From Deltaproteobacteria bacterium (GTDB lineage Bacteria; Desulfobacterota; Desulfarculia; JACQYL01), in the NCBI GenBank assembly GCA_016208165.1, contig JACQYL010000001.1:8099-72098 (forward strand): a stretch of 64,000 bases of DNA, in the 5' to 3' direction. The notes beneath the pieces are model-generated. The model saw only the letters and a program-made list of their open reading frames with translations, was not told where the DNA came from and made no database searches. Of the stretch, positions 7,776 to 54,707 are shown in pieces (the first letter of the stretch is position 1; every line of letters begins with the position of its first letter). The translations under genes were made by a program, and so were the position numbers.

Positions 7776-8212
7776 TCGATTGTGAAACGGAGATCGTTCT
7801 CGTGGAGGACAATCCGAACGATGCGGAACTCATTACGAGGGTGCTCAAGAAACACGATCTAGGCGACAATTTGGTCATCCTAAGGGACGGCGCGGAAGCC
7901 CTGTCGTTTCTTTTCGGGGAGGACGGCTGCGTCAAAGGATCCCTTGGCCCCCTCAGGTTGATTCTACTGGACTTGAAACTTCCGAAAGTCGATGGAACCG
8001 AGGTGCTGCGTCGAATCAAAACCGATGAGCGCACCAAGAGTATACCGGTCGTCATCCTGACTTCTTCATCGGAGCAGCGCGATCTCCATGATACTTACAA
8101 CTTGGGCGCCAACAGCTATGTGACAAAGCCGATCAAATTCACCGACTTCGCCCAAGTGGTGTCGGACGTGGGATCGTACTGGTTGCGTCGGAACAAATTA
8201 CCCGACCTGTAG
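7772..8212 (+). CDS. single-domain response regulator (CheY-like receiver)
   Basis: Internal Met MIDCETEIVLVEDNPNDAELI...LLDLKLP..DG...KPIKF overlaps the kinase stop (ATGA). Receiver-domain Asp pocket and conserved Lys are present. Confidence 0.8.
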   Translation: MIDCETEIVLVEDNPNDAELITRVLKKHDLGDNLVILRDGAEALSFLFGEDGCVKGSLGPLRLILLDLKLPKVDGTEVLRRIKTDERTKSIPVVILTSSSEQRDLHDTYNLGANSYVTKPIKFTDFAQVVSDVGSYWLRRNKLPDL

Positions 8213-8224
8213 CGGGGGATCCCA

Positions 8225-34877: not shown

Positions 34878-35640
34878 TCCGGGATCATGATCGACAAAAC
34901 CAACATCATCGCAGCGTTGCTGGAGAGATTGGACAACACGCCCATGGGGCATCATCCGGATATCCGGCCGTATAAAAGAAACTGATCGGTCGTGGTCGTG
35001 CGAAGGACCGAAACGGTTTATGAAATCATTGAAGAAGGATTCTTCTGCGACCGTTTTTCCGTGGAGGCCTCCGGGTTGAAGAAAAGCCTGCGGGTAATGA
35101 TCAAAAAGGAGTTTCCGCGAAGCCACAAAATATGGGTGTACGCCATGGAGCCGTATCCGCAGGAAGAACCGCACGGCACGGAGAGAAAGAAGATTTGAGG
35201 ATTGTTTCACAGATGGTCCGCTTGGGGCCACGGAAAGAGAGGCTGTTGGGTAAGCTAGAGAATCGGAAAGAAGTCAACATGCGGGCTTGCCCCCCGACAC
35301 AGTCCTCTCTCGATAAAATGATATGATTCCGACCTCCTTCCGGGAATTCTTTCCAGAAAGTCCTAAGCTTGCTTCTCTTGGCTTTTCTGGCTATAAATAT
35401 CGACGAATACGGGCTAATAATACAGCAAGGCCTTTTGCATAAACTCTTCATTAGGTTAGGAGCGTCATCGGGGGCAGCGAAGTAAGGAAGATCGTCCTTC
35501 TTGAAGTGATGCGATGTTCAAGGCGGGTACTCTGAAAAGACTGAACAATCTGTTCATCTACCGGGAGCGAATCGCCAAAAAGCTGTTTGTCTCGGAACTC
35601 TGTTACAACCGATCCCTTTAATAGAGCCAGGGGAACGCAC

Positions 35641-36816
35641 ATGAATCGATTTGAAAACCTTCAAGAATTAGAAATAGACACTGAATCGGCATGCTCCGAT
35701 TCCGCCCCAGAAGACGGTGGTGTTGAACCCGAGGAAGTGGAGGGAGACGAGCCCATAACACAGCCCTTCGATCCCACAAAGACGCAGATCATCACTTCAT
35801 GGCCGACGGTTAGCCTCTTGGTGACGAGGATACAAGAGGGAGAAATCGATCTGTTCCCAAGTTTTCAGAGAAAGGCGGACCTCTGGTCGCCAGCCCAGAA
35901 AAGTCGCCTGATAGAATCATTACTGCTTCGCATGCCCCTGCCCTCTTTCTATTTCGACGCCACTGACGACGAAAACTGGGTCGTAGTGGATGGACTGCAG
36001 CGTCTTTGGACGTTACAGGAGTTTCTCCTAAGCGACATGAGGCTTCATCACCTCGAGTTTTTGATTAATTACGAAAATAGCATGTTCAAAGACTTACCCC
36101 GACACCTGCAGAGACGTATCGGAGAGACGCAGGTCGTTGCGCATCTCATTCAGCCGGGCACACCACCCCAGGTAAAGTTTAACATATTTAGGCGAATCAA
36201 CACGGGTGGATTAGTTCTCTCGGCCCAAGAGATCAGGCACGCACTGAATCAAGGGAATGCACCCCAATTCCTAAAGAAACTCGCGTGCTCGAAGGCTTTC
36301 TTAGAGGCGACCCAAGGGAGCGTGCGCCCCGATCGTATGGAAGATCAGGAATTTGTACTTCGTTTCATGGCTTTCACGATCGTTCCGTACCCTCAATATA
36401 AGGTAGCAGATCTTGATGGGTTTCTGCATGAACAAATGGCTAGATTGAACACCGTCGGAAATGATGAGCTCGAAGACCTAGAGGTGAGATTTCAACGGGC
36501 TATGAGAGCATCAAGGCTGATCTTTGGAAGACAGGCCTTCAGGAAAAGCCTTAGGGATGGGGTTTCGGCCTGGAGAAATCCCATCAACAAGGCCATCTTT
36601 GAGGTCTGGTCCGTCACTCTGGGCCAACTCACTGAAGATAAATTAGAACATTTAATCCACCGAAAAGATGACGTCATCAGTAGATTTATTGAGGTTTTGA
36701 ACACTAATGACGAGTTTGTCGCCGCGGTATCTCAAGGAACTGGGGACGTAAAGAAAGTGAAGCAGCGGTTTAAAACCGTTGCCAAACTTGTAGAGGATAT
36801 CCTCAATGCAAACTAA
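35641..36816 (+). CDS. DUF262 (ParB-like/GmrSD N-terminal nuclease-like) domain protein
   Basis: ...FQRKADLWSPAQKSRLIESLLLRMPLPSFYFDA....WVVVDGLQRLWTL is the DUF262 DGQQR-type motif. Acidic N-terminal extension. Start at MNRFENLQ with SD GGGGAA. Stop overlaps the next gene. Confidence 0.8.
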   Translation: MNRFENLQELEIDTESACSDSAPEDGGVEPEEVEGDEPITQPFDPTKTQIITSWPTVSLLVTRIQEGEIDLFPSFQRKADLWSPAQKSRLIESLLLRMPLPSFYFDATDDENWVVVDGLQRLWTLQEFLLSDMRLHHLEFLINYENSMFKDLPRHLQRRIGETQVVAHLIQPGTPPQVKFNIFRRINTGGLVLSAQEIRHALNQGNAPQFLKKLACSKAFLEATQGSVRPDRMEDQEFVLRFMAFTIVPYPQYKVADLDGFLHEQMARLNTVGNDELEDLEVRFQRAMRASRLIFGRQAFRKSLRDGVSAWRNPINKAIFEVWSVTLGQLTEDKLEHLIHRKDDVISRFIEVLNTNDEFVAAVSQGTGDVKKVKQRFKTVAKLVEDILNAN

Positions 36817-37927
36817 TCACCTGCAGGCCATCCATCTAATGAATTTTAAGTGCTTCGAAGACCAGAAGGTTTCGCTTGCTCCGATTACCCTCCTCACAGG
36901 TCTCAACGGCATGGGTAAGTCAACAGTATTACAGAGCTTGTTGCTGCTTCGACAATCGGCCATGCGGAACGTGTTGGAACACTATGGTTTGCTACTGAAC
37001 GGCGATTTGGTGAATCTGGGCAGGGCAGGCGATGTGCTGTTCGAAGGTGCTCGAGACGAGCATATTGTTCTTGAATTGACCGTTGGCGGGATGCAGGAGT
37101 CCTGGAAATTCAGGTATGAGGATCCCCATGCGGACGTGCTGATGCTGGAAGAGGGACCAAAGGTCTTGCCTGAATGGGTGGTTTTCGGCAATCGATTCCA
37201 TTATTTGGCGGCTGAGCGCATGGGGCCACGAGAAATCTACGAGATCTCTGCCTACTATGTTCGCAAATTGCGACAATTGGGCGCAGATGGGCGATTCGCG
37301 GTGGCCTATCTTGAAGAATACGGAAAAAGCCTGCGGTGCCTCCAAGGGTTGCTGCATCCGAAAACCTCTGACTCGACGGAGGAAAATCTTTATTCACAGG
37401 TTAACTTGTGGCTGGGAGAAATCAGTCCTGGTGCGCGATTGGAACCGATTTCCTTCCCGGACATAGGCAAGACTTCGTTGAGGGTTTCCTTTCCTTCTTC
37501 TACCAAGGGGCTAATGTCCAGACCATATTCGACGCCCAATGTCGGCTTCGGTTTCAGTTATACGCTCCCGGTTCTTGTGGCCGTTCTGTCGTCTTCTTCA
37601 GGAGATTTGGTTCTCATGGAAAATCCGGAGGCACATCTGCATCCGCAGGGACAAGTGGCGTTGGGGCGACTGTTCGCACTCGCCGCGTCTGGCGGGATAC
37701 AACTCATTGTGGAGACTCACAGTGATCATATACTGAACGGAGTACGCGTAGAAGTGAGGGATGGTTGTATTGCCAGCGAGGATGTGCGCATTCATTTTTT
37801 CCAACGGAACCAGCCTGGTGGGCAGCATTTTGTGGAGTCTCCTCGGGTGGATAAGGATGGACGAATCGATAACTGGCCGGAAGGATTTTTCGATCAAACA
37901 GAGCGTCTCCTAATGGAATTGATTTAA
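36806..37927 (+). CDS. AAA/ABC-type ATPase (AAA_21-like) with DUF3696-like C-terminal tail
   Basis: Walker A (LTGLNGMGKSTVL), Walker B/D-loop (LVLMENPEAHLHP), H-loop (VETHSDH). C-terminal ...NWPEGFFDQ. Overlaps the upstream gene by 11 bp. Confidence 0.78.
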   Translation: MQTNHLQAIHLMNFKCFEDQKVSLAPITLLTGLNGMGKSTVLQSLLLLRQSAMRNVLEHYGLLLNGDLVNLGRAGDVLFEGARDEHIVLELTVGGMQESWKFRYEDPHADVLMLEEGPKVLPEWVVFGNRFHYLAAERMGPREIYEISAYYVRKLRQLGADGRFAVAYLEEYGKSLRCLQGLLHPKTSDSTEENLYSQVNLWLGEISPGARLEPISFPDIGKTSLRVSFPSSTKGLMSRPYSTPNVGFGFSYTLPVLVAVLSSSSGDLVLMENPEAHLHPQGQVALGRLFALAASGGIQLIVETHSDHILNGVRVEVRDGCIASEDVRIHFFQRNQPGGQHFVESPRVDKDGRIDNWPEGFFDQTERLLMELI

Positions 37928-37945
37928 GGCCGCAGGGTTCCCCGA

Positions 37946-38902
37946 TTGCATCAGATATTGAACGAGTTGTCTTTCCAGAAGGTCTCTACGAGCGTAAAGG
38001 ATGCCCAGGAACGCATGCATATGCTCTTGCTCGTTTTCAAGGCCGTTGCTGATTGCGGTTCTGAGAAGATCCTTCGTACCAAACGAAACCTTATGTCCGA
38101 ATTGGTTGCTTCCCAATATACTGTCTCGCACTGGCTTCAGGACAGACGCGTGAACCGGGACGAACGGTTATTATTCAAGACCGTAGCAACGAAAGCCCCT
38201 TTTGTCGAGGAACTCTGGAACAAATTGGAATCAGACGACTTGGGCCTGCACGAATTCTATTTCCAAGGTCAAAAAGCTGAGGGTTTGGGCGTGGCTTATC
38301 TTGACGATACATGTGCTCTTTCCCTTGGAGGTGATCAGAGGTTCGAACAGGATCCCATTCAAGTCGTGTATCAAGTGATGTATGCCCTAAATAGTAGATT
38401 GGGATCCGAAACTGTGGAAGTCTGCTCTTTGAGTAACTTAGACCATGTATGCCGCCGTTGCGTATGGATTGGTGAACGTGCTCAAAGACAGGTCGTCGAT
38501 GGGGTCTCACTCTGGGAGCAAAAGGAATCTCTATTTCCTCGTCTCGCGTTTCTCCCTGCAACCAAGGCGCAAATTCAACAGTTATCGGGGCGTGAACCTC
38601 ATTTCCGCCAAGTTCTTAAACATCTTTTCATACTGAACAGTGCGATGAAAAAGTGGGCTGGAGGGCCGTACAACCCGGAAGGCATCGAATGGTCCGCAGA
38701 AAGCCTGTCTACAAGGACCAGCAAGAAACTTGCGGACGCCCGCAGGTTTTCTAATTCTAACGGTAACTTCGCAGTATATAATTACCACACGAAGATTAGA
38801 GGCATCAACTGGCGCATACACTTCCATCCTGATACTGAAAAACAGATCGTGACCATAGCATACATAGGACGACATCTGCCAACAGCCAGACACGGAAAGT
38901 AA
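37946..38902 (+). CDS. hypothetical protein with RelE/ParE-toxin-like C-terminal segment
   Basis: 18 bp downstream of the ATPase. The last approx 45 aa (GNFAVYNYHTKIRGINWRIHFHPDTEKQIVTIAYIGRH) follow the RelE/ParE pattern (..Y.lRi.g.yRiiy.vd.e...v.vl.igHR). The N-terminal 270 aa are unrecognised. Confidence 0.55.
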   Translation: MHQILNELSFQKVSTSVKDAQERMHMLLLVFKAVADCGSEKILRTKRNLMSELVASQYTVSHWLQDRRVNRDERLLFKTVATKAPFVEELWNKLESDDLGLHEFYFQGQKAEGLGVAYLDDTCALSLGGDQRFEQDPIQVVYQVMYALNSRLGSETVEVCSLSNLDHVCRRCVWIGERAQRQVVDGVSLWEQKESLFPRLAFLPATKAQIQQLSGREPHFRQVLKHLFILNSAMKKWAGGPYNPEGIEWSAESLSTRTSKKLADARRFSNSNGNFAVYNYHTKIRGINWRIHFHPDTEKQIVTIAYIGRHLPTARHGK

Positions 38903-39197
38903 AAGCAGCCGACTCAAGTTCAAGACTTCCATTCTTTTTTTTGCAGAAGCGGAACAGCTATTCGGTTTCCGATTGGGATCTCAATATTTACCTGCCAGGA
39001 TCATGATCCTTTTCTCCCCCACTGCGGCCGCATTTTTTAAATAGACGACCACCGGATTTCGTTCTATATTCAGGTACATCCTCTTCTAAAGGGAGCTCTG
39101 GAGGTTCATTCGTCGGGGAGCGGGCCTGGTGGCGCCGGCTGAGCAGGTAGGAAGTTCCCCCGGCGGACCGGGCCGATTCGAACCATGGGATGACCCT

Positions 39198-39875
39198 ATG
39201 CACGAAAGTCATGTGTCCATCGAAGTAGCGGGTGCGGGCGGCGTGTCGGGTATCGTTTCCATGCCGGGCGATTTCCGCCCGGGTACGGGGACTGCGGTGG
39301 TCCTCGCCCACGGAGCGGGCAATGACATGCACAACCCGTTGCTCGAGGCCGTGGCTTCGGGACTGGCGGATGCCGGGTATCCGGCGCTACGGTTTAATTT
39401 TCCTTACAAGGAACAGGGGCGCAAGGCCCCGGACCGCCGGGAAATCCTCGAGTCGGCCTGGCAATCCGCGTTCGAATTTATGGAAGAACACGACGAAATC
39501 AGACCGGAACGCGTGGTGGCCGCCGGAAAATCCATGGGCGGCCGCATCGCCGCCGAGATGGTGTCCGCCGGCGCACTGCCCGCGGACCGGCTCGTCTTTC
39601 TGGGATATCCGTTGCACGCGCCCGGCGAGAAAGATCGCCTGCGGGATGCCCGTCTTTATGATATTTCGGTTCCCATGCTGTTCTTCGCCGGCTCAAGGGA
39701 CTCTTTATGCGATCTGAAACTTCTCAGGAGCGTGTTGTCCAAACTGAGAGCGCCCTGGGACCTCGAGGTCATTGATGGGGGCGACCATTCCTTTAAGTTG
39801 CCCAGAGCGTCCGGGATTTCAGAAACCGATGTATTTGCCCGTATCGTGAGCAAGATGCTTGACTGGCTCACTTAG
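39198..39875 (+). CDS. alpha/beta hydrolase (dienelactone hydrolase/KANL3-like)
   Basis: Nucleophile elbow GKSMGG and the spacing of Asp/His pockets (DSLCD; GGDHSF). Internal start at MHESHVSIEVAG. Confidence 0.72.
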   Translation: MHESHVSIEVAGAGGVSGIVSMPGDFRPGTGTAVVLAHGAGNDMHNPLLEAVASGLADAGYPALRFNFPYKEQGRKAPDRREILESAWQSAFEFMEEHDEIRPERVVAAGKSMGGRIAAEMVSAGALPADRLVFLGYPLHAPGEKDRLRDARLYDISVPMLFFAGSRDSLCDLKLLRSVLSKLRAPWDLEVIDGGDHSFKLPRASGISETDVFARIVSKMLDWLT

Positions 39876-39971: not shown

Positions 39972-41066
39972 ATGCCGAATACAGACAAGAAACGTTTGAT
40001 GACCCGGTTGCTGAGCCTGACAGGAGCGTTGCTGCTGCTTTTGCTCCTGGGGCTCTGGGTGACGAGGGCGTTCAATGAAAAGATTGCGCCGGACAAAATT
40101 CCTTTGTCCGAGGCCCGCATAGGACCGGGGGATACTCCGGCGGCTGTTGAATGGACCGAAATGCCCCTGGTGGCGGAGGCTGTGGGAACGGTGAGGGCCA
40201 AACACAGCACGCTGATCGCGAGTAAACTCCTCGAACGCGTGGAAAAGGTCAATGTTTATGCAGGAGATCTAGTGAAAGCAGGGGACCTTCTGATCGAGCT
40301 GGACCGCGGGGAGCTCGAGGCCAGGAAGGCGGCGGCCCGGGCAGGCTACGAGTCCGCCAAGGCGGAAGGCATGCTCCGGTCACGGGAATTCCGTCGGGTC
40401 AGCGAACTGTTGGATCGGAAGTCCGCCAGTGAGCAGGAATTCGATCTGGCGAAAATGAAAAAGTCCGCGGCCGAAGCGAATGTCGACAGAGCGTTGGAAG
40501 AAATCCAGGTGGTGGAATCGTCTTTGAAATTTACCCGGATTCCTGCACCCGTCAACGGCAGAATTATCGAACGCATGGTGGAGCCGGGAGATATGGCCGT
40601 ACCCGGAAAAACGCTGCTCACCATGTACGATCCCGCCAATCTGCGACTCGAGGCGACGGTTCGGGAATCGCTGCTGCCGTTCATCCGCCTTGGAATGGAG
40701 CTCGATATGCGAATTGACGCCGGCGATTGCAGTTGTCGGGGCCCCGTCGAAGAAATCGTTCCCCAGGCTTCCGAGACGAGCCGCGCCTTTACGGTGAAGG
40801 TGGTCCTTCCCTATCGTGAGGGGCTTTTCCCCGGTATGTTCGGTCGGCTGTATGTACCTCACGGCGCCACCCACCGGCTCCTCGTTCCCGCATCCGCGGT
40901 CCGACGGATCGGACAGGTTGAACTCGTGGACCTGGTGCGTCCGGACGGGACGGTCGTGCGGCAGGAGGTGCAAACGGGCAGACGGTTCGGGGACCGGCTC
41001 GAGGTCCTTTCGGGAATCGAGTCTCCCGAGCCGGGAGCCCCGCTTCAGCGGGTTCTGCTGCATTGA
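39972..41066 (+). CDS. RND efflux periplasmic adaptor subunit (MFP/HlyD family)
   Basis: Single TM/signal, then a lipoyl/coiled-coil/beta-barrel organisation (VYAGDLVKAGDLLIELD...). Confidence 0.85.
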   Translation: MPNTDKKRLMTRLLSLTGALLLLLLLGLWVTRAFNEKIAPDKIPLSEARIGPGDTPAAVEWTEMPLVAEAVGTVRAKHSTLIASKLLERVEKVNVYAGDLVKAGDLLIELDRGELEARKAAARAGYESAKAEGMLRSREFRRVSELLDRKSASEQEFDLAKMKKSAAEANVDRALEEIQVVESSLKFTRIPAPVNGRIIERMVEPGDMAVPGKTLLTMYDPANLRLEATVRESLLPFIRLGMELDMRIDAGDCSCRGPVEEIVPQASETSRAFTVKVVLPYREGLFPGMFGRLYVPHGATHRLLVPASAVRRIGQVELVDLVRPDGTVVRQEVQTGRRFGDRLEVLSGIESPEPGAPLQRVLLH

Positions 41067-41100: not shown

Positions 41101-44100
41101 GTGTCTGAAGTGTCTCAGCAAAGGGATGGCGTGATCGGAGGTGTGGTCCGGGCCTTCATCAGCCGGAATCTGTCCGTTCTGCTGATCCTGTTCGCGCTGG
41201 CCGCCGGTATGGGCGCTCTCCTGATGACCCCCCGAGAGGAAGATCCCCAGATCGTAGTCCCCATGGCGGACGTGTTCGTCCGCATGCCCGGTTTCAGCGC
41301 CGGCGAGGTCGAGCGACTGGTGGCCACGCGTCTCGAAAAACTGCTCTACCAGATCGACGGAGTGGAATACGTTTACAGCATGTCCAAACCCAACCTGGCC
41401 GTGGTGACGGTTCGGTTCTATGTGGGCGAGGATCGGGAAGACAGTCTCATTCGTTTGTACAACAAGATTCAGATGAATGTGGATTTTATTCCACCGGGAG
41501 TTACGGGATGGGTCGTAAAACCGGTGGAAATAGACGACGTTCCCATTCTGTGCGCCACGTTGTTCAGCCGGCGATACAAGGAGTACGAACTCCGGCGGGT
41601 GGCGGAAGAACTGGAAATCGAGCTTCAGGCTATTCCCGATACGGGCGTAACCAGAATCGTTGGGGGACTCCGGCGCCGACTCAACGTGCGTTTGGATGCG
41701 GAGGCCATGGCCGCTCATGGTCTGCAGCCTTTGGACCTGTCCCGGGCTCTTGCGGCCGCCAACGTTACGTTAAGAGCCGGTTCGTTTGACTCGGTCAATC
41801 GGGAACAGGTTGTGGACGCGGGCGATGCACTGGCTCGTCCGGAAGACGTCATGAACCTGGTGGTGGGCGTTCACGAGAGCCGGCCGGTGTACCTCCGGGA
41901 TGTGGCGCGGGTTTCGGATGGTTCCGACGAAATCGACAGCTATACCCGTTTCGGTTTCGGACCGGCGGCGGACCCTCGATGGACCGGTTCGGACCATCAG
42001 GCTTCCCCGGGTCCTTATCCTTCGGTTACCATTGCCGTCGCCAAGAAGAAAGGCGCCAACGCCATAAGCGTCTCCCGGGCCGTTCAGGCTCGACTGGAGG
42101 AGCTCAGGAGCACGGTTCTGCCGGACGGAATGGACATCGCCATTACCCGGGATTACGGCCGGACAGCCAACGACAAGGTGAACGACTTAGTGGAATCCCT
42201 CATCGTTGCAGGGATTATCGTGGCCGGGCTGATTCTGTTTTCCATGGGGTGGCGCGAAGCCTTCATTGTAGTTACCGCGGTGCCCATAACGTTCAGTTTG
42301 TCGCTTCTGGTCAACTACCTGGCCGGCTATACCATCAATCGGGTGACCCTTTTCGCCCTGATCCTGTCTCTGGGATTGGTGGTGGACGACCCCATCACCA
42401 ATGTGGACAACATCCAGCGGCACATACGCATGCGCCTGCGCAAACCGTTGGACGCCACGATTGCCGCGGTGCAGGAGGTGTTGCCGCCGGTGATTCTTTC
42501 CACGCTGGCCATCATTGTTAGCTTCACGCCCATGTTCTTTATCACGGGCATGATGGGTCCTTACATGAGGCCCATGGCGATCAACGTGCCGTTGGCGGTG
42601 ACGTTCAGCACTGTGTGCGCCCTTACCATCGTGCCCTGGCTCAGTTATTATCTGCTGCGAAAACAGGGAGAGAGCGAGTCGGCCGAAACCGTTCCTCGAG
42701 ATGTGACGCCGGCCTGGCTGCGCAAAAGCTACAGCCGGATTATGCGTCCGTTTCTATCCTCGTCCTATTGGCGTTTCCTGCTGCTCGCCGGGACGGTGGT
42801 TCTGTTTTTCGGAGCCGTGTCTCTGGCCGCCCTAGGGCTGGTACCGCTCAAGATGCTGCCGTTCGACAACAAGAATGAGCTGCAGATCGTGGTGGACATG
42901 CCCGAAGGAACGACCCTCGAGCGCACGGCGGAAGCCACGGACGCCATAGCCGGGTATCTGCCGAGTGTACCCGAGATGACCGATTATACCACGTATGTGG
43001 GCCTTTCGAGCCCCATGGACTTTAACGGTCTGGTGCGGCACTATTATCTTCGGGAAGGCAGCAATGTGTCCGACATCCGAGTGAACCTGATCGACAAATA
43101 TCACCGCGAGCAGCAGAGTCACGCCATCGCGCTGCGGATCCGAAAGGATATCGAGCACATAGCCGAACGGTTCCATGCCAATGTTAAAATCGTGGAAATT
43201 CCGCCGGGACCGCCCGTTATCGCCACCATAACGGCCGAAATATACGGAGCGCCTTACAGCACCTACCAAGAAATGATCGAAGCCTCGGGCATGGTTCGGG
43301 ACATGATGGCCAAGGAGCCTCTGCTCGTGGATCTGGACGTTTCGGTGGAATTTCCTCAAACTCTGTATGTGTTCAAAGTGGACAAAGTGAAAGCCGCTTT
43401 GAACGGCGTTTCCACCGAGGATATTGCCCGTACGGTGCAGATGGCTCTGGGGGGAGCGGACGCCGGGGTGGTGCATCTTCCACACGAAGCGAATCCGTTC
43501 AACATCTATCTGCAACTTCCGATGGCTCGAAGATCAACGTTGCAGGACCTCAAGGCGCTTTATGTCCGGGGGAATCCGGGCGTGCCGGTGCAGATTGCCG
43601 AACTGGGTCTTTTCACGGAGTCGACCGTGGATCAGACGATCTACCATAAGAATCTCCGCCGCCTGGTGTACATTTATGGTGAATTGGCGGGCCGACCGCC
43701 GGCGGAAGCGATTTTCAGCATGCAACGGAAGCTCGAACGAAACCCCTTGCCGGAAGGATTTCAGGTCGAATGGACGGGTGAAGGAGAATGGAAGATCACG
43801 GTGGATGTGTTCAGAGATCTAGGAATCGCCTTCGCCGTTGCGTTTTTGGGTATATACATTCTCCTGGTGTACGAAACGAGGAGCTACCTGATTCCCTGCG
43901 TATTGTTGATCGCGGTGCCTCTGACCATCATCGGCATCATGCCCGGCTTCTGGCTGCTCAACGCGGTGACGGGAGGACAGGTGGGAGGTTACCCGAATCC
44001 GATTTTCTTCACGGCCACCGCGATGATCGGGACCATTGCCCTGGCGGGCATCGTGGTTCGCAACTCCGTGGTGCTGATCACCTTCATAAGGGACGAACTC

Positions 44101-44355
44101 GCCGAGGGACAGTCCCTCGAGGCCGCCATACTATCGAGCGGAGCCGTGCGCATGCGGCCCATTTTCCTGACGGCCGCGACTACGGCGCTGAGCGCCTGGC
44201 CCATAACCCTGGCCCCCATATTTTCCGGTCTGGCCTGGGCGTTGATCTTCGGGCTGTTCGTGTCAACGGCGTTCTCACTAGTAATGGTTCCCGTGGTCTA
44301 TTTCATGATATATAGGAAGCGGTTCGGAACGAGTGGAGCATACGGGGGATCGTGA
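41101..44355 (+). CDS. RND efflux transporter (AcrB/HAE family) inner-membrane pump
   Basis: 1084 aa with 12 TM helices and two large periplasmic loops. The antisense ORFs are rejected. Confidence 0.9.
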   Translation: MSEVSQQRDGVIGGVVRAFISRNLSVLLILFALAAGMGALLMTPREEDPQIVVPMADVFVRMPGFSAGEVERLVATRLEKLLYQIDGVEYVYSMSKPNLAVVTVRFYVGEDREDSLIRLYNKIQMNVDFIPPGVTGWVVKPVEIDDVPILCATLFSRRYKEYELRRVAEELEIELQAIPDTGVTRIVGGLRRRLNVRLDAEAMAAHGLQPLDLSRALAAANVTLRAGSFDSVNREQVVDAGDALARPEDVMNLVVGVHESRPVYLRDVARVSDGSDEIDSYTRFGFGPAADPRWTGSDHQASPGPYPSVTIAVAKKKGANAISVSRAVQARLEELRSTVLPDGMDIAITRDYGRTANDKVNDLVESLIVAGIIVAGLILFSMGWREAFIVVTAVPITFSLSLLVNYLAGYTINRVTLFALILSLGLVVDDPITNVDNIQRHIRMRLRKPLDATIAAVQEVLPPVILSTLAIIVSFTPMFFITGMMGPYMRPMAINVPLAVTFSTVCALTIVPWLSYYLLRKQGESESAETVPRDVTPAWLRKSYSRIMRPFLSSSYWRFLLLAGTVVLFFGAVSLAALGLVPLKMLPFDNKNELQIVVDMPEGTTLERTAEATDAIAGYLPSVPEMTDYTTYVGLSSPMDFNGLVRHYYLREGSNVSDIRVNLIDKYHREQQSHAIALRIRKDIEHIAERFHANVKIVEIPPGPPVIATITAEIYGAPYSTYQEMIEASGMVRDMMAKEPLLVDLDVSVEFPQTLYVFKVDKVKAALNGVSTEDIARTVQMALGGADAGVVHLPHEANPFNIYLQLPMARRSTLQDLKALYVRGNPGVPVQIAELGLFTESTVDQTIYHKNLRRLVYIYGELAGRPPAEAIFSMQRKLERNPLPEGFQVEWTGEGEWKITVDVFRDLGIAFAVAFLGIYILLVYETRSYLIPCVLLIAVPLTIIGIMPGFWLLNAVTGGQVGGYPNPIFFTATAMIGTIALAGIVVRNSVVLITFIRDELAEGQSLEAAILSSGAVRMRPIFLTAATTALSAWPITLAPIFSGLAWALIFGLFVSTAFSLVMVPVVYFMIYRKRFGTSGAYGGS

Positions 44356-44867
44356 AAGGGGACAAAATCCGACCGATCGAGATGAAAGAAACAGACGCTC
44401 CTGATCCGGAAGCATTTTCGCCGTCCGGGAGTGCGACTGACGGCGCCTCGCGCCGAAGCGTGCTGTTTCTGATTTGGGCCCTTGTCCTAATAGTTTTGGC
44501 GGTCATGCTTCGAAGCATCTCTGCTTTCCTGGCGGCAAGCGGGCCGAAGGAAAAGGTACGATATCCCGTGCCCATGCCTGAGCGGTTCCCTTTCAAAGGA
44601 GCCGAATTCTGGCTGGACCGCGACGACCAAGGCCTGTTCGCGTTCCTGGATCGTTGCCCTCATCTGGGGTGCAAACCCGTTTACTATCCGGATCGGAAGG
44701 AATATGTTTGTCCCTGCCACGGAAGCCGTTTCTCGGAAGGCGGAATATACGAGTCCGGTCCGGCCCGAAAGAGCATGCAACGGATCCTGGTCCGCCGTGG
44801 GCGGGATGACGAACTTATGGTCGATCTCCGAGAAAACGTGTCCGAGTCCTACCGGGTAGGCGTGTAG
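44352..44867 (+). CDS. membrane-anchored Rieske [2Fe-2S] protein with Tat-type signal
   Basis: The CPHLGC...(17)...CPCHGS Rieske boxes. N-terminal SRRSVLFLIWALVLIV is a twin-arginine motif plus TM. The GTG start overlaps the RND pump stop (GTGA) with SD GGGGGA. Confidence 0.75.
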   Translation: MKGDKIRPIEMKETDAPDPEAFSPSGSATDGASRRSVLFLIWALVLIVLAVMLRSISAFLAASGPKEKVRYPVPMPERFPFKGAEFWLDRDDQGLFAFLDRCPHLGCKPVYYPDRKEYVCPCHGSRFSEGGIYESGPARKSMQRILVRRGRDDELMVDLRENVSESYRVGV

Positions 44868-45013: not shown

Positions 45014-45937
45014 TCAAATGAAGTTCCTGTAGTCAAATGTCTCGAGGTACTGCCAGGTCCGGATGCGGATCTCCTCGCGCTCTTCGACCGATAGTTCGGC
45101 GGCGGTAGCCTTGTTTGCCTCGGGTGTCGCCTTTTTGATGGTCCCCCACGGGTAGACCTCCTCGAGGGGTATTGAATTGAACGTCGGTTGGCCAAGGCTG
45201 TGGGCCGACTCGAGACCAAGCTTCTCACAGATTGCTCCGAGCGTCTTTTCAGGGGAAGCCATCACATCCTCGGTCCGCACTATGTGAAGCCTTCCCGGAA
45301 ATTTCTTCCGGCCCAGGAGCGCAAAATGCTGGTTGAGGTTCCAGCCCAGGATGTAGTTCGCCAAGCTCATCGGGACCGGCCTCTTCTTGGTATCGGCGTA
45401 CGCTGACCATGGATTTCGAACAACATGGAGAAAATGTGCATTGGGGAAATCATAAAAAATCTTCTCGAAATCCACAACGACTATCGGACTGTATCCGACG
45501 TATAAGGTCCGTTTCCCATTGTGCCTGTAGTCTTTCCACGCATCGAAGGTGGACTTGAAGAATGCCGCTATGTTTGTCGACCTCGACCTGCCTGATTCCC
45601 TGATATAGCTCTGATAGATTTCGCGGCGATTGTCGTCGGAAAAGTCGAAGGGCATATGGCGAAACTTGCTCGCATGAGGCGTTCGTGCTCGAATCTTGCA
45701 CTCCTCATCGATAATCGCCTTGTAGTCGTCGATGGCCGAGGCGTTGAGTTCAAAAGCAGGCCAACGGTATTTCACGGGGAAAACGGATGAGAGCATATCC
45801 TGGACCAGGCAGGTCCCGATCTGCGATTCGAAAGGATACACAAACATCTGGGGATGACCGTCAAACAGTCGGTGGGTGACGTTTCCTCCGTTCTCATACA
45901 TCGCGCCGATCATTAGCAACCGGAATTCCATTTCCAT
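45014..45937 (-). CDS. sulfotransferase-family protein
   Basis: P-loop-like 5'-PSB region and ..HFLHVVRNPWS.. typical of Sulfotransfer_1/3. Confidence 0.72.
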   Translation of the reverse strand: MEMEFRLLMIGAMYENGGNVTHRLFDGHPQMFVYPFESQIGTCLVQDMLSSVFPVKYRWPAFELNASAIDDYKAIIDEECKIRARTPHASKFRHMPFDFSDDNRREIYQSYIRESGRSRSTNIAAFFKSTFDAWKDYRHNGKRTLYVGYSPIVVVDFEKIFYDFPNAHFLHVVRNPWSAYADTKKRPVPMSLANYILGWNLNQHFALLGRKKFPGRLHIVRTEDVMASPEKTLGAICEKLGLESAHSLGQPTFNSIPLEEVYPWGTIKKATPEANKATAAELSVEEREEIRIRTWQYLETFDYRNFI

Positions 45938-46039
45938 GTATTCTTGCGCCTCGCGTCGAGGTTTTCCGATGGTGAACTCCGCGTCGGAAAAAAACCTTTC
46001 GGCATCAATTGCGAAGGTATTTCGCCGGGCGGAACTCGG

Positions 46040-47227
46040 TCAGGTTCTAAAATTATAGAAAAGTTCCTCGATCTCCACTTTCCGGGTCCTGCCATTTCCC
46101 GGCAGGGGAAAACCTGAAACGCAGCCGGCGGGCAGCCATTCGATGGAAAAAACCTGGTTCCCGTGTGGCCAGATGAGGCTCCCAATGATCTCTCCCGACC
46201 TTACATCCACCATGTGAATGCCGCATATACTACTCTCGATATCCAGTCCCGGAGCGTATTGGCCGAAACGGGGAATGACCTTCGATGTGCCCAGGAATGC
46301 AATATCTTCATGGAAGCAAAGTCCCCGTGTCCAACCGTTCAGTCTTACCACAGCCTCGAATTTTCCGTCGTCTATGAAGCCCATCTCGCCGTACCCGCTG
46401 TTATCGACCCATAACCGGCCCCGGTGAAGTCGCGCCGAATGCGGCCTGGTAAGACCTCGCGCCACGGGCTCGCCCGTTTTCCCGGAGAAGATCACACCTC
46501 TTCCTTTAACCGGGAAATTCCTGTGACCAGGACGCCTGGATGAGATACGCTCCGATGAGGCCGAGAAAAAGGATTCGTTGATGGAGTTCCCGGCGGCTAT
46601 GGAATTCAACTGGAGATAATTTATCCCCAGAGAGGGTTCCGACCCGGTTTCGATGCACCGGGGCCACCAGACGTGCTCGAACCTGCCGTCATTTCCCAGG
46701 CGAATCACTGAGTTGTTTCCCACTGAATTGGCGTGTAGTTCCCGGCCGATGAGTGCTATGTCGTGAATATACAGACAGCCGGGGAAAAACCTGGAGCCCA
46801 CGGGCACGAGGCTCTTATCGCCACCGGTCCCGCGCCATTTCGCTTCCTTGCGTTCCTGCCGCCCGCGAGCGGGAAGGAATTCGAAAATCTGGTTTGGATT
46901 CCGAGTGCTTGCTACATATAGTCTGCAGGCTTGTCTGTCCACGGCCAGGCCGGAAGGATGAGGAATCGGCCATCTGGTGACCCGTCCATTCCCTTTTCCA
47001 TCGGTCCCCAGGGCGATCAGCGAGTGCTCGTATTCCCTGCTGACGATGAGGGTTATTTCCGCGGATTCCAGAGTGTCCCACCACTTGCCGCTTACGTAAA
47101 ACTCGAGAAGCCTTGGATCGATACTACCGGCCCCGTCCCACAGTCCCGCAACCTGGGCCGGATTTCTCCAAAGAGCTTCGTTTCTGCCCCACAAACCGTC
47201 CGGTTCGGTCCATGAAACGCCTTTCAT
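46040..47227 (-). CDS. conserved hypothetical protein of the TIGR03032-like family (glycan-cluster associated)
   Basis: 395 aa, beta-propeller-like. The family call comes from overall pattern and its recurrent neighbourhood with sulfotransferases and glycosyltransferases. Confidence 0.6.
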   Translation of the reverse strand: MKGVSWTEPDGLWGRNEALWRNPAQVAGLWDGAGSIDPRLLEFYVSGKWWDTLESAEITLIVSREYEHSLIALGTDGKGNGRVTRWPIPHPSGLAVDRQACRLYVASTRNPNQIFEFLPARGRQERKEAKWRGTGGDKSLVPVGSRFFPGCLYIHDIALIGRELHANSVGNNSVIRLGNDGRFEHVWWPRCIETGSEPSLGINYLQLNSIAAGNSINESFFSASSERISSRRPGHRNFPVKGRGVIFSGKTGEPVARGLTRPHSARLHRGRLWVDNSGYGEMGFIDDGKFEAVVRLNGWTRGLCFHEDIAFLGTSKVIPRFGQYAPGLDIESSICGIHMVDVRSGEIIGSLIWPHGNQVFSIEWLPAGCVSGFPLPGNGRTRKVEIEELFYNFRT

Positions 47228-47919
47228 TTGCGACCTCCGGGCGAATTCAGGTAAAATCCAAAGGCCCCTCCGTACATTCTCAGCGCCGATAAAATGCCTG
47301 TGGTGCTTTTTCCTCCGTGCCGGGGCGTCAGGTTAATCGGGAATTCCACTATCCTGTACCCATTCATGGTGCACCGGAAAATAAACTCCATGTCGAAGAG
47401 GTCGCCGTCCTCGGATAGTGTAAGCAGGTGCTTAAAATCCCTGGGAAATAACTTGGGGGTACCGTTTATGTCCCAAACCGGAATGTCGAACAGCATCCGG
47501 CATTGGATATTATAGAGGATGGAGCCCAGCCTGCGCAGGGCAGTTTCGCGAATTTTGCGATTGGCCTTGACCACGATTCCGGGGTTGTCCAAAGCGAACT
47601 GGATTGAAAACAGGAGATCGTCGGCCGTGGTACGGGCGGAATTGGTGAAGCACAGAAGATTGCCGCCCGCGGAACTCATGCCCAGTTTTACGGCAAGCCC
47701 CCAGCCACCGGTGCGACTGACAATCAGGCGGACATTCTCGCGCCTCTCCGCGAGGTCCCGGCAGAGGGCCTCCGAGTTGTCACGGCAGCCGTTTACTACC
47801 AGTATGATTTCATAAGGGACGGTGAGCTCGGCGAGCTTCTCCGCGTACTCGTTTACAACGGTTCGGATGTGATCAGCCTGATTGCAAATGGGAAGAACTA
47901 TAGAGCAGAGCGTGTACAT
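47224..47919 (-). CDS. family 2 glycosyltransferase
   Basis: Internal Met MYTLCSIVLPICNQADHI...ILVVNGCRDNS is GT-A with a DxD-type motif. The stop overlaps the upstream gene start (ATGA). Confidence 0.8.
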   Translation of the reverse strand: MYTLCSIVLPICNQADHIRTVVNEYAEKLAELTVPYEIILVVNGCRDNSEALCRDLAERRENVRLIVSRTGGWGLAVKLGMSSAGGNLLCFTNSARTTADDLLFSIQFALDNPGIVVKANRKIRETALRRLGSILYNIQCRMLFDIPVWDINGTPKLFPRDFKHLLTLSEDGDLFDMEFIFRCTMNGYRIVEFPINLTPRHGGKSTTGILSALRMYGGAFGFYLNSPGGRK

Positions 47920-48141
47920 CGGTACAAGTCCAGTAATGTAAGAATGGCGCCGGCCGGTTCGTCGGAGGCGCGGGATTAGAGGCACAAATACCGGTCTCGG
48001 GAGCGCGGACACGAATGGAACAACGCCGAGCATTTGCAGAACTTTCCGCCGCCCCCGCTTTGCAGGTGCATTCAATTTCGACTAAATTCCGTCTTACCAT
48101 GGGGGTAACTCGGTTGGGAAGCGGTTTTCCACGGTGATTCG

Positions 48142-48614: not shown

Positions 48615-49940
48615 TTGGACCGGAGCATATACAACAAAGCGGTGCTGGGCTGGAGCCTGTACGATTTCGCCAACTCGGCGTTCGCCACCACCATCCTCGC
48701 CGTGATCTTCAACAAGTATTTCGCCCAGGTGGTGGCCGGTGGGGAGACCGGTGTCCTGATCTGGGGGGTACGAATCCCTGGCGCGGCATTGTTCGGCTAT
48801 GTGCTTTCCATGAGTTACGCGGTGGCGGCGTTCATGGGTCCCGTACTGGGCGCCATAGCGGATGAAACCCGCGCGAAAAAGAGGTTTCTCGGCGTCTTCT
48901 GCTGCCTGGGAGTGGTGTGTTCCGCCCTGCTCTATTTCGTGCACACCGGAGACGTCCTGTTGGGAAGCACGCTGTTCATTCTGGCGAATGTGGGCTTCGG
49001 TGGAGGGATGGTTTTCTACAATGCATTTTTGACTGAAATTTCGAACGAAGACAATGTGGGCCGTATCTCCGGGATCGGATGGGCTCTCGGTTACATAGGA
49101 GGCGGGCTCCTGCTGGCGCTGAATCTGGTGATGCTCGAATTTCCGCATTGGCTTGGATTTCCCGCCAAAACCTTCACTGTGGGTCATTGCTTTGTTTCCG
49201 TGGCTGTTTGGTGGGGAGTATTTGCGTTGCCGTTTTTCTTCTGGGTGAAGGAAAGGCGGGACTGCACAACGGCGCGGCCCGGTTCCGGATACCTTCGCCT
49301 CGGATTTTCGAGGGTGTTCGAGACCCTTCATCATATACGCCAACACAAGGAATTCACGAAATTCCTAGTCGCCTATCTCCTGTTCAACGACGGCATTGAA
49401 ACCGTCATTGTGTTCGCCTCGATCTTCGGAGCCGCCGTGGTGGGCATGGAGACGCACGAGCTGATCCTGTTCTTCCTGGTGATTCAGGGGACGGCGTTTT
49501 TCGGATCCCTCCTTTTAGGCTTTCTATCGGATCGCCTCGGCCAGAAAGGTACCCTTATGGCTACCCTGTTCGTGTGGACGGGCGTGGTCCTGTGGGCCTA
49601 TTTCATGGGATTTTGGGACCTTAAAAAAGAGTACTGGATCCTGGGGATCGTTTCGGGCACGGTGCTGGGCGGCTCTCAGTCCATAGCCCGTTCGATGGCA
49701 GGAAGACTGATTCCTACAGGACGCAGCGCCGAGTTCTTCGGTTTTTACGCCATCAGCGGCCGTTTTGCGGCCATCTTCGGCCCCGCCCTTTACAGTTCGG
49801 TCATCACCGTGACGGGCAGCATGCGATCGGGAGTACTCTCGCTGGGCATACTCTTTCTGGCGGGTATGATCGGTCTGTCGTGGGTCCGGGTCTCGAAAAA
49901 AACCGGGGCGGCTCGATTCGAGGAAACTTTGAGCGCCTGA
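48615..49940 (+). CDS. MFS transporter (UMF1/Atg22-like subfamily)
   Basis: 441 aa with 12 TM helices. N-terminus AVLGWSLYDFANSAFATTIL. Confidence 0.8.
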   Translation: MDRSIYNKAVLGWSLYDFANSAFATTILAVIFNKYFAQVVAGGETGVLIWGVRIPGAALFGYVLSMSYAVAAFMGPVLGAIADETRAKKRFLGVFCCLGVVCSALLYFVHTGDVLLGSTLFILANVGFGGGMVFYNAFLTEISNEDNVGRISGIGWALGYIGGGLLLALNLVMLEFPHWLGFPAKTFTVGHCFVSVAVWWGVFALPFFFWVKERRDCTTARPGSGYLRLGFSRVFETLHHIRQHKEFTKFLVAYLLFNDGIETVIVFASIFGAAVVGMETHELILFFLVIQGTAFFGSLLLGFLSDRLGQKGTLMATLFVWTGVVLWAYFMGFWDLKKEYWILGIVSGTVLGGSQSIARSMAGRLIPTGRSAEFFGFYAISGRFAAIFGPALYSSVITVTGSMRSGVLSLGILFLAGMIGLSWVRVSKKTGAARFEETLSA

Positions 49941-52787: not shown

Positions 52788-53852
52788 TCAGGGTTCCAAA
52801 TTCAGCGAAGAGGCATGCTTGCGATAGAGCCCCCGGAACTGGTGGTAGGTGAGGCCCAGAAGCTCGGCCGCTTTATGCTGGCGGAAGCGGGCCTCGAGGA
52901 GGGCCCGCTGAATCAGTCGAATTTCAAGATCGGCCACCTGCCGGGTCAACGGGGTGTCCAGGGCTAGGGCGGGTTCAAGCGGAGACTGGACCGCCGAATC
53001 AGCGGTCTGGCTCTGTTCGGAAGGGGGCGCCAAAACGGATTCAGGGAACGGATCGAAGACGATTTCTTTAATGGATTCAGAGTCGGATCGGTAAACGGCG
53101 CGTTCCACTACGTTCTTGAGTTCGCGTACATTTCCGGGCCAGGAATAGGCCTCAAGGGAGATCATGGCCTCTCGAGTGAACACCGGCAGGGCGTCGTGTC
53201 CCAATTCCTTTGCGATGCGCGAAGCGAAGTGACGCGCGAGAAGAGACACATCTCCCGCCCTGTTCCTGAGCGCCGGCAACAGCAGTACTTCAAAGGAGAG
53301 CCGGTCGAGGAGGTCGCGTTTGAACCGGCCTTCGCGCGCCAGGGCCGGCAAGTCCGCATTGGTGGCCCCGATGATGCGGACATCGACCATTACGACGTCC
53401 GACCCTCCAACCCGTTCAAAAGTGCCGTATTCCACGACGCGAAGAATTTTCTCCTGGGCTTCAAGGGGAATATTGCCGATTTCGTCGAGGAAAAGCGTAC
53501 CCCCGTGAGCGGCCTCGAAGCGCCCTATTCTTCGTTTGACGGCGCCGGTAAACGCCCCCGGCTCATACCCGAAGAGCTCGGATTCGATGAGGCCCGGAGA
53601 GAGGGCCGCGCAATTCAGAGCAAGCAGGGGACTCCTCCAACGGTGGGAAAGATAATGGAGACGGGAGGCGGCCAGTTCCTTACCGGTTCCTCTTTCTCCG
53701 ATGATGAGGATTGGGCGGTCCACACGTGCGGCCCGAGATAGACGCTCCTGGAAATCCAGAAAGGATTCCGACTCACCAAGGCCTTCCTGGGAAGCGAGGG
53801 CGGGCATGTCGGTCTGGTTGCGAGTGAAGGATGACATGGTGTATATTACCAT
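52788..53852 (-). CDS. pspF: sigma-54-dependent activator PspF (AAA+ domain + HTH, no receiver)
   Basis: GERGTGKELAASRLHYLS...ESELFGYEPGAFTGA (GAFTGA motif). C-terminal HTH. Divergent from pspA. Confidence 0.85.
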   Translation of the reverse strand: MVIYTMSSFTRNQTDMPALASQEGLGESESFLDFQERLSRAARVDRPILIIGERGTGKELAASRLHYLSHRWRSPLLALNCAALSPGLIESELFGYEPGAFTGAVKRRIGRFEAAHGGTLFLDEIGNIPLEAQEKILRVVEYGTFERVGGSDVVMVDVRIIGATNADLPALAREGRFKRDLLDRLSFEVLLLPALRNRAGDVSLLARHFASRIAKELGHDALPVFTREAMISLEAYSWPGNVRELKNVVERAVYRSDSESIKEIVFDPFPESVLAPPSEQSQTADSAVQSPLEPALALDTPLTRQVADLEIRLIQRALLEARFRQHKAAELLGLTYHQFRGLYRKHASSLNLEP

Positions 53853-53969
53853 ATATAGGCTAAAATAGCCAGTATTTTGCTAAAACAGCCGGATTACGTT
53901 CAGCCGGCGGGTCTCTGATTCACGTACAACTCGTTGATATTGCTTAGCTAGTATGGATTTTGCCCAAGT

Positions 53970-53984
53970 TGGCCCGGTTGTTGC
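53970..53984 (+). promoter_or_regulatory. sigma-54 promoter (TGGCCCG-N4-TTGC) upstream of pspA
   Basis: -24 GG / -12 GC elements with correct spacing, about 40 bp upstream of the pspA ATG. Confidence 0.5.
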
Positions 53985-54023
53985 CCACTTTCATGGCAAC
54001 CAAGCCACAAGAGAGGTGACATC

Positions 54024-54707
54024 ATGGGCGTTTTCAGCAGAGTTCGAGATATCGTGAGTTCAAACATCAATGCCATGCTGGACCGGGCGGAAGACCCGGA
54101 GAAGCTGGTCCGGCTCATGATCCAGGAGATGGAGGACACCCTGGTGGAAATCAAAGCCTCGTGCGCAGGGGCTATGGCAGCCAAAAAACAAACGCAGCGG
54201 GCTTTGGAAGACCACCGGGAGCGGACCCGTTCGTGGGAGCAGAGGGCGGAGCTGGCCGTTGGAAAGGGGCGCGAGGACCTGGCCAGAGAGGCGTTGCTGG
54301 AAAAACGCCGGTACCTGCAGCGCGCGGAGACCCTGGAGGACGAAATGGGTCAGACGCAGGCCATCATTGCCCAATACCAGGAACAGATCGCCCAGCTCGA
54401 GGAGAAGCTGGCCACGGCCAGAGAAAAGCAGCGTCTGCTCGTTCAGCGACACGTTCATGCCCGTGATCGGAAACGAGCCCAGGAAGACATTCGGCGCTTC
54501 GAAACTTCCGATGTGTTCCTGAGGTTCGAGCAGTTCGAGAACCGCATCGAGCGCATGGAAGCCGAGGCGGAGATGGTCAATCTCGGTCGCACTCCGTCGC
54601 TGGACGACGAGTTTGCCCGTTTAGCGGAAGGCGAAGAGATCGAGCGAGAACTCGAGACGTTGAAAGCCAAATGTGGACGAAGGGGCGAAGAACACCGACC
54701 GATGTGA
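54024..54707 (+). CDS. pspA: phage shock protein A
   Basis: MGVFSRVRDIVSSNINAMLDRAEDPEKLVRLMIQEMEDTL is the classic PspA/IM30 N-terminus. An all-coiled-coil 227 aa. Confidence 0.9.
   Translation: MGVFSRVRDIVSSNINAMLDRAEDPEKLVRLMIQEMEDTLVEIKASCAGAMAAKKQTQRALEDHRERTRSWEQRAELAVGKGREDLAREALLEKRRYLQRAETLEDEMGQTQAIIAQYQEQIAQLEEKLATAREKQRLLVQRHVHARDRKRAQEDIRRFETSDVFLRFEQFENRIERMEAEAEMVNLGRTPSLDDEFARLAEGEEIERELETLKAKCGRRGEEHRPM

Follow-up and report, generated by a model that had tools for sequence, protein, structure and literature searches.

The best-described counterparts of the gene analysed here are the short Rieske subunits of Rieske/cytochrome b complexes, among them Kustd1480 (9rk3), Kuste4569 (9rk4) and the cytochrome b-linked Rieske proteins of Desulfomonilaceae and Thermodesulfobacteriota, which combine a twin-arginine pair, a single helix and a minimal domain of about 100 residues. 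Some known Rieske genes stand apart from any cytochrome b gene: Synechocystis PetC3 (5cxm) is a small protein of the twin-arginine translocation (Tat) type, and the second Rieske protein of Mesorhizobium loti is a stand-alone paralog at a distance from the cytochrome b genes (PMC6256036). In arsenite oxidase, the Tat-signal Rieske protein AioB serves a periplasmic molybdoenzyme. Operons for resistance-nodulation-division (RND) pumps can in turn encode extra small proteins, as with CusF, MexG and AcrZ, each conserved with its pump across genera. Here we examine a Rieske [2Fe-2S] protein gene lying directly behind the genes for a membrane fusion protein (MFP) and an RND permease in 64,000 nucleotides of a Deltaproteobacteria bacterium (assembly GCA_016208165.1, contig JACQYL010000001.1, positions 8,099 to 72,098 of the forward strand; this whole stretch is the window). 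We consider it somewhat likelier to be right than wrong that the gene encodes a Tat-inserted, N-terminally anchored and periplasm-facing Rieske carrier of a rare orphan clade, recently relocated to the pump operon and with its partner encoded elsewhere.

The gene and the elements recognized in it are as follows.

44352-44867, plus strand: Rieske [2Fe-2S] protein gene, 171 codons and a stop, GTG start, family PF00355
44655-44672, plus strand: Rieske box I, CPHLGC, with C102 and H104 as ligands and C107 in the disulfide
44709-44726, plus strand: Rieske box II, CPCHGS, with C120 and H123 as ligands, C122 in the disulfide, and Ser125, then Phe127
44448-44468, plus strand: twin-arginine motif S33-R-R-S-V-L-F39 (residues 33-39)
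44460-44510, plus strand: predicted hydrophobic membrane-anchor helix (residues 37-53), a 17-residue hydrophobic stretch behind SRRSVLF
44352-44447, plus strand: putative cytoplasmic N-terminal extension (residues 1-32), with an alternative ATG start at 44382

The 171-residue open reading frame (ORF) matches PF00355 in Pfam at 37.6 bits (cut-off 20.3, E 2e-9), and C102, H104, C107, C120, C122 and H123 are invariant (6/6) in an alignment of 29 homologs. An earlier reading of this DNA, hereafter the first-pass annotation, had noted both boxes together with SRRSVLF; both are indeed present, and the ligands are intact rather than mutated on realignment. With two Cys and two His ligands and a disulfide pair, the protein conforms to the bc1/b6f-type Rieske pattern. 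The arginine pair, which is KR in three members, is kept across the family wherever the N-terminus is complete, the motif reading SRRSFLV in the relative L031/L002 (L numbers denote loci fetched for comparison), and the window protein passes a Tat-motif test comprising an (S/T)-R-R-x-F-L-K-like motif and then a hydrophobic stretch. These features point to export by the Tat pathway. All of the more specific family models scored below their cut-offs: 40 versus 250 for PetC (NF045928), 38.9 versus 97.4 for the bc1 Rieske subunit (TIGR01416), 22.4 versus 275 for QcrA (NF050121) and 20.6 bits versus 95.65 for AioB (TIGR02694). The GC content of the gene is in line with that of the adjoining genes, and NCBI already holds an identical protein, named 'Rieske (2Fe-2S) protein', from an 88.5-kb contig of a Deltaproteobacteria metagenome-assembled genome.

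An AlphaFold2 model computed from the 29-sequence alignment (mean predicted local distance difference test score, pLDDT, 86.6) consists of a long helix (residues 28-62) joined to a compact beta domain by a short linker of low confidence, with pLDDT of 85-98 across residues 31-60 of the helix. The window protein thus models as a membrane-anchored Rieske domain, and this helix, together with the analogy to bc1 Rieske proteins, suggests that the N-terminus would be retained as an uncleaved anchor. The modelled fold is the Rieske beta sandwich with its cluster-binding subdomain, and the solved structures closest to it are the soluble Rieske domains of the Kuenenia stuttgartiensis Rieske/cytochrome b complexes, 9rk4 (Foldseek E 1e-8, target template-modelling score, TM-score, 0.84) and 9rk3 (target TM-score 0.70; phmmer E 5e-15), followed by Rieske subunits of b6f, bc1 and AioB and by PetC3, the last at rank 30 among the fold matches. 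As in the short cytochrome b-complex subunits, the CPHLGC and CPCHGS boxes lie 12 residues apart and the same disulfide is predicted. The Ser/Phe pair after box II is that of Kustd1480, a protein with this pair whose potential was measured at +335 mV (PMC12954380); Ser125 and Phe127 are by this analogy a hint, and only a hint, about the redox potential of the window protein.

Codon alignments with three or four related Rieske genes gave ratios of non-synonymous to synonymous divergence (dN/dS) of 0.15-0.37 overall and 0.22-0.26 for the soluble domain, at synonymous divergence (dS) of 0.38-0.73, indicating that the gene is under purifying selection. The full-length genes of three lineages each have exactly 171 codons. 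Among close relatives the Rieske protein is nonetheless less conserved than its neighbours, at 72-74% identity versus 88-93% for RND.

Collectively, these comparisons portray, by sequence and by model, an ordinary minimal bc-type Rieske protein, and the gene appears to be an orphan Rieske paralog in an unusual and phylogenetically narrow genomic position. It differs from the cytochrome b-complex subunits in that no cytochrome b gene follows it, in being only about 33% identical to the nearest cytochrome b-linked relatives, and in carrying a clade-specific FPFKGAEFWLDRD motif and the 32-residue N-terminal extension. The likeness to PetC3 and the M. loti paralog is one of location away from cytochrome b and not of descent, as the lineages are unrelated, and neither of the two is encoded at the end of an efflux operon. 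AioB resembles the window protein in its Tat signal and in weak sequence and fold matches, and a sister clade of the window gene, described below, adjoins a gene of the molybdopterin family, qrcB; the protein encoded beside it is, however, QrcB and not AioA, and no aioA-like gene was found in the window. Like CusF, MexG and AcrZ, the window protein is small, belongs to the cell envelope and shares its operon with an MFP-RND pair, but it has no sequence or fold relationship to them and, unlike them, is not conserved with its pump across genera.

The pump operon in front of the Rieske gene consists of three genes.

39129-39875, plus strand: Abhydrolase_11 alpha/beta hydrolase (PF20408, E 6e-46)
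39972-41066, plus strand: RND periplasmic adaptor, that is, the membrane fusion protein (TIGR01730, 175 bits versus a cut-off of 94.9; HlyD_D23)
41101-44355, plus strand: RND permease, HAE1-like and divergent, 1084 residues (PF00873, 533 bits, E 1.6e-159)

The hydrolase gene is probably the first of the operon, the order hydrolase-MFP-RND recurring in L038. The best NCBIfam subfamily models for the permease score far under their cut-offs, and about 8000 homologs are found at E<1e-100. The pump had been described as tripartite, a label that the operon itself does not bear out, as it encodes no outer-membrane factor: none of the about 40 window ORFs scanned with Pfam matched OEP (PF02321). An OEP gene does accompany the 59%-identical RND ortholog in L039.

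We assessed how widely the MFP-RND-Rieske order extends by searching 5.8 billion protein clusters and by scanning one genome per species and Joint Genome Institute (JGI) metagenomes. Four protein clusters were at least 57% identical to the window Rieske protein, and the metagenome scan added two further, partial Rieske genes of the orphan clade. All fetched loci were then sorted by tblastn with the pump, cytochrome b and major facilitator superfamily (MFS) proteins, giving three groups.

Group a: the window, L031 (= L002), L001 and L032 (cut at its 5' end); Rieske 72-87% identical; order MFP-RND-Rieske, with RND 88-93% identical
Group b: L003, L009 (= L034) and L033; Rieske 55-59% identical; no pump and no cytochrome b nearby
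Group c: all other relatives; Rieske about 25-33% identical over the soluble domain, with best local segments at 28-58%

A cytochrome b gene follows the Rieske gene in every group c locus with its downstream flank present (L010 and L016 end at a contig edge), often overlapping it, and multihaem cytochromes often lie alongside. In the Myxococcales locus L005, a cytochrome b-like frame directly after the Rieske gene (6356-7150, by tblastn) was left uncalled in the source annotation.

The arrangement was found only where RND is 88-93% identical, which amounts to three or four lineages at species level. Outside group a, the closest RND proteins reach 67-70% identity; four of these (L036, L037, L038 and L040) were examined together with L039 from Desulfoferrobacter suflitae, at 59%; in none of these five orthologs does a Rieske gene follow RND, its place being taken by a methyltransferase gene on the opposite strand, a CsgG-like gene, or a metallo-beta-lactamase or small ORF. 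L038 (RND 70% identical) is a true positional ortholog of the window operon because it retains the upstream Abhydrolase_11 gene, and it too lacks a Rieske gene after the pump. In assembly CAZQXK01, the closest outgroup genome examined, the pump operon (L038) and a 55%-identical Rieske ortholog (L009) lie on different contigs, so that pump and Rieske gene are unlinked there, and parsimony therefore places their joining in the ancestor of group a. Because the window and its closest relatives are widely collinear, a shared gene order within group a is to be expected from relatedness alone.

At the junction itself, the Rieske GTG (44352-44354) overlaps the TGA of the RND ORF (44353-44355), the Rieske gene starting 4 nt inside that stop. 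This GTGA overlap, already remarked upon in the first-pass annotation, is read directly from the window sequence, yet that exact form was found in the window only: the spacing is -4 nt in the window, +9 nt in L031/L002 and -14 nt in L001. A 1-nt indel close to where the RND gene ends (44335-44355) gave rise to the overlap: relative to L031/L002 it removed the RND TAA and extended the frame by five codons; the RND gene of L001 has yet another C-terminus. One further element lies here.

44344-44348, plus strand: GGGGG Shine-Dalgarno-like run, 3 nt upstream of the Rieske GTG

The description of this run as a good Shine-Dalgarno sequence needs tempering, since its 3-nt spacing is tighter than usual, but relatives have kept both the run and the start codon. 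A junction DNA alignment gives GGGGG in L031/L002 and GGGTG in L001, with the consensus GGGGGAT(C/T)(G/T)TG AAR GGR in all lineages. In L031/L002 the RND gene ends before the run, with a TAA located 9 nt ahead of the GTG, and RND coding therefore cannot explain why the run is conserved. The start codon is GTG in the window and in L031/L002 and TTG in L001. We also considered ATG 44382 as the Rieske start. The ten codons between the GTG and this ATG are in frame in L031 and L001, and comparison of these first ten codons with L001 shows six synonymous and two non-synonymous changes. Because these codons behave as coding, the start codon and G-run are conserved and the 171-codon length is kept, GTG 44352 is the probable true start and is preferred over the ATG.

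A promoter and terminator scan of 38.8-45.3 kb revealed no sigma-70-like promoter close to the RND/Rieske junction and no terminator-like site from the Rieske stop to the next gene; the terminator-like sites that it did list were of low quality and inside genes. Rfam gave no match anywhere in the window. The junction seems tight enough in all lineages for co-transcription and re-initiation, and the Rieske protein is likely co-expressed with the pump.

A neighbour-joining tree recovers groups a and b as sister clades in 170 of 200 bootstraps, and after midpoint rooting this pair joins one cytochrome b-linked branch (Thermodesulfobacteriota, Desulfomonilaceae), a placement to be read as topology only. 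The group b Rieske protein shows an SRRTMI motif of its own when its ORF is lengthened at the 5' end, and about 760 bp downstream of its gene come qrcB, qrcC and qrcD on the same strand.

7899-13722 of L009: Rieske-qrcBCD locus, an arrangement also present in L003, L033 and L034
QrcB: 478 bits versus a cut-off of 440 (NCBIfam equivalog)
QrcC: 408 bits versus a cut-off of 400 (NCBIfam equivalog)
QrcD: 664 bits versus a cut-off of 570 (NCBIfam equivalog)

QrcBCD belong to the menaquinone reductase Qrc, and the QrcB of this locus has its own twin-arginine signal. The usual first gene of a qrc set is qrcA, which encodes a multihaem cytochrome c. No qrcA is present at the group b locus; no CxxCH occurs in any frame of the 760-bp gap in L009, L003 or L033, the small ORFs of the gap have no Pfam matches, and Rfam returned only a sub-threshold McaS match between the Rieske gene and qrcB. 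The sister locus may represent a variant of Qrc in which a Rieske protein takes over from the multihaem QrcA. A literature search combining QrcB and Rieske yielded, by titles and abstracts, only apparently unrelated work.

Taken together, these data suggest the following course of events. Within Thermodesulfobacteriota, a small orphan clade would have branched off the short Rieske subunits that belong to Rieske/cytochrome b complexes, and in the ancestor of a narrow, roughly genus-level lineage one such gene would have landed directly behind an MFP-RND operon. It would now probably rely on the pump promoter for transcription and on re-initiation at the RND stop for translation, yielding a functional bc/b6f-type Rieske protein held in the inner membrane by its N-terminus with the cluster domain facing the periplasm. 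There it most likely passes single electrons between redox partners of the periplasm and the membrane, whose genes would lie in other parts of the genome. The sister lineage suggests a quinone-interacting Qrc-type (NrfD) complex as a candidate for the partner; a cytochrome b complex is the other. The identity of the gene, its intact ligands, the fold model, purifying selection, the tight junction and the narrow spread of the linkage are shown by the data; Tat export, co-transcription and the nature of the partner are inferred from them.

The surroundings of the MFP-RND-Rieske triad bear on this account, and three features are needed here.

35587-38902, upstream of the triad: NsnABC defence island, three co-directional genes (PADLOC)
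45014-48075, minus strand: three-gene cassette of sulfotransferase, DUF4915 and GT2 glycosyltransferase genes (Pfam)
48615-49940, plus strand: ATG22-like MFS transporter (PF11700, E 6e-74), 88% identical to the L001 MFS protein

The window and L001 are collinear through two M16 peptidase genes, the pump, the Rieske gene, the ATG22-like MFS gene, a CsgG-like gene, a sigma-54 activator gene and PspA, and the synteny shared by close relatives reaches at least 20 kb. The PADLOC matches of the island are strong (NsnA E 9e-137, NsnB E 4e-111, NsnC E 1e-65), its proteins being GmrSD_N, AAA_15 with DUF3696, and a third without a match in Pfam. With a GC content of 0.48-0.51 against about 0.59 in its neighbours, and with these genes absent from the corresponding position in L001, NsnABC looks like a horizontally acquired defence island. 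On the other flank, the cassette stands between the window Rieske and MFS genes and is missing from L001, L031/L002 and L032, where the MFS gene directly follows the Rieske gene; the ATG22-like MFS gene thus appears to be the ancestral downstream neighbour.

Four observations weigh against a relocated carrier with a partner elsewhere. First, tblastn found no cytochrome b, no QrcB, QrcC or QrcD and no multihaem cytochrome anywhere in the 64-kb window. Second, the qrcBCD adjacency, a lead rather than a result, comes from a single lineage and spans a gap of about 760 bp; the group b contigs differ by a dS of just 0.06 and therefore count as one observation. Third, insertions have occurred on both flanks of the triad in the window and none inside it. 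Fourth, the pump-Rieske junction stayed tight over synonymous divergence of up to about 0.7. An unsplit triad would fit selection for co-expression, and equally chance over a short evolutionary distance. On the first point, Pfam likewise recovered no redox partner among the about 40 window ORFs, and the statement in the first-pass annotation that no cytochrome b gene lies beside the Rieske gene is borne out by tblastn of the entire window and by Pfam analysis of its large ORFs.

The alternative that fares best among the rivals, which we nevertheless regard as unlikely, would make the Rieske protein a genuine subunit of the MFP-RND pump, accessory or regulatory, that performs redox chemistry on the exported substrate in the periplasm or gates the pump by redox sensing. 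Wherever the arrangement occurs, the Rieske start overlaps or adjoins the RND stop; the triad has stayed whole through the remodelling of its two flanks, purifying selection acts on the gene where it now stands, and the modelled single membrane helix would permit lateral association with the permease. Against this stand its absence beside each of the five pump orthologs that are 59-70% identical, one of them in a genome with a Rieske ortholog elsewhere, and the restriction of the arrangement to close relatives that are syntenic over at least 20 kb anyway. The protein itself has no feature departing from the Rieske subunits of cytochrome b complexes, and our full-text literature search, its listed papers judged by titles and abstracts, turned up no apparent report of a Rieske gene in an RND operon. 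On the gene orders examined, the Rieske protein is thus no conserved part of the pump. Of the interpretation offered in the first-pass annotation, the gene identities, the Tat-type N-terminus, the tight junction and the lack of an adjacent cytochrome b gene stand, whereas the role as pump accessory or regulator finds no backing in gene order: kept in L001 and L031/L002, the MFP-RND-Rieske order is confined to RND proteins at 88-93% identity and is gone at 59-70%. We give still less credence to a broader proposition, in which the Rieske protein was recruited as a redox accessory of RND, placed beside the permease by its single membrane helix for one-electron chemistry on the exported compound in the periplasm or for tuning the pump to the periplasmic redox state, or in which, as an independent lead, the orphan clade replaces QrcA as the periplasmic electron-entry subunit of QrcBCD; this we think quite improbable.

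Very improbable, in our estimation, is a functional pairing of the Rieske protein with the ATG22-like MFS transporter instead of the RND pump. The order Rieske-then-MFS in L001, L031/L002 and L032, and the persistence of the MFS gene only 3.7 kb off in the window, would agree with such a pairing, but the gap in the relatives is 230-350 nt, the opposite-strand cassette has split the pair in the window with both genes retained, no MFS gene lies near the sister-clade Rieske gene, and the evidence amounts to synteny among close relatives only. The idea that the ORF is a decaying relic or a chance reading frame without function could draw on the lower identity of the Rieske protein relative to RND (72-74% versus 88-93%), but it is implausible in the extreme given invariant ligands and disulfide cysteines, an unchanging length of 171 codons in three lineages and a confident fold model, and it is effectively refuted by the dN/dS analysis (0.15-0.37 at dS up to 0.73).

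Should the account of a relocated orphan carrier hold, a respiratory-chain subunit can leave its complex, enter an unrelated operon and persist there under selection, and a tight overlap of start and stop codons is by itself no evidence of functional partnership. A Qrc complex without QrcA, if real, would be a new variant of a respiratory module of sulfate reducers. Were the Rieske protein instead an accessory of the pump, RND systems would gain their first iron-sulfur subunit, and the biology of RND efflux a redox cofactor protein.

Elsewhere in the window, a large signalling cluster at 3280-9904 encodes a 919-residue protein bearing seven PAS domains and, behind it, two kinases, namely a PAS histidine kinase and a hybrid kinase that carries two receiver domains, and the ORFs at 59189-61018 (609 residues) and 393-1352 (319 residues) have no Pfam match. 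A few kilobases from the pump, at 52788-54707, a PspF-like sigma-54 activator gene on the minus strand lies divergent from pspA; L002 has the same pair plus pspC, which makes this a conserved phage-shock or envelope-stress locus.

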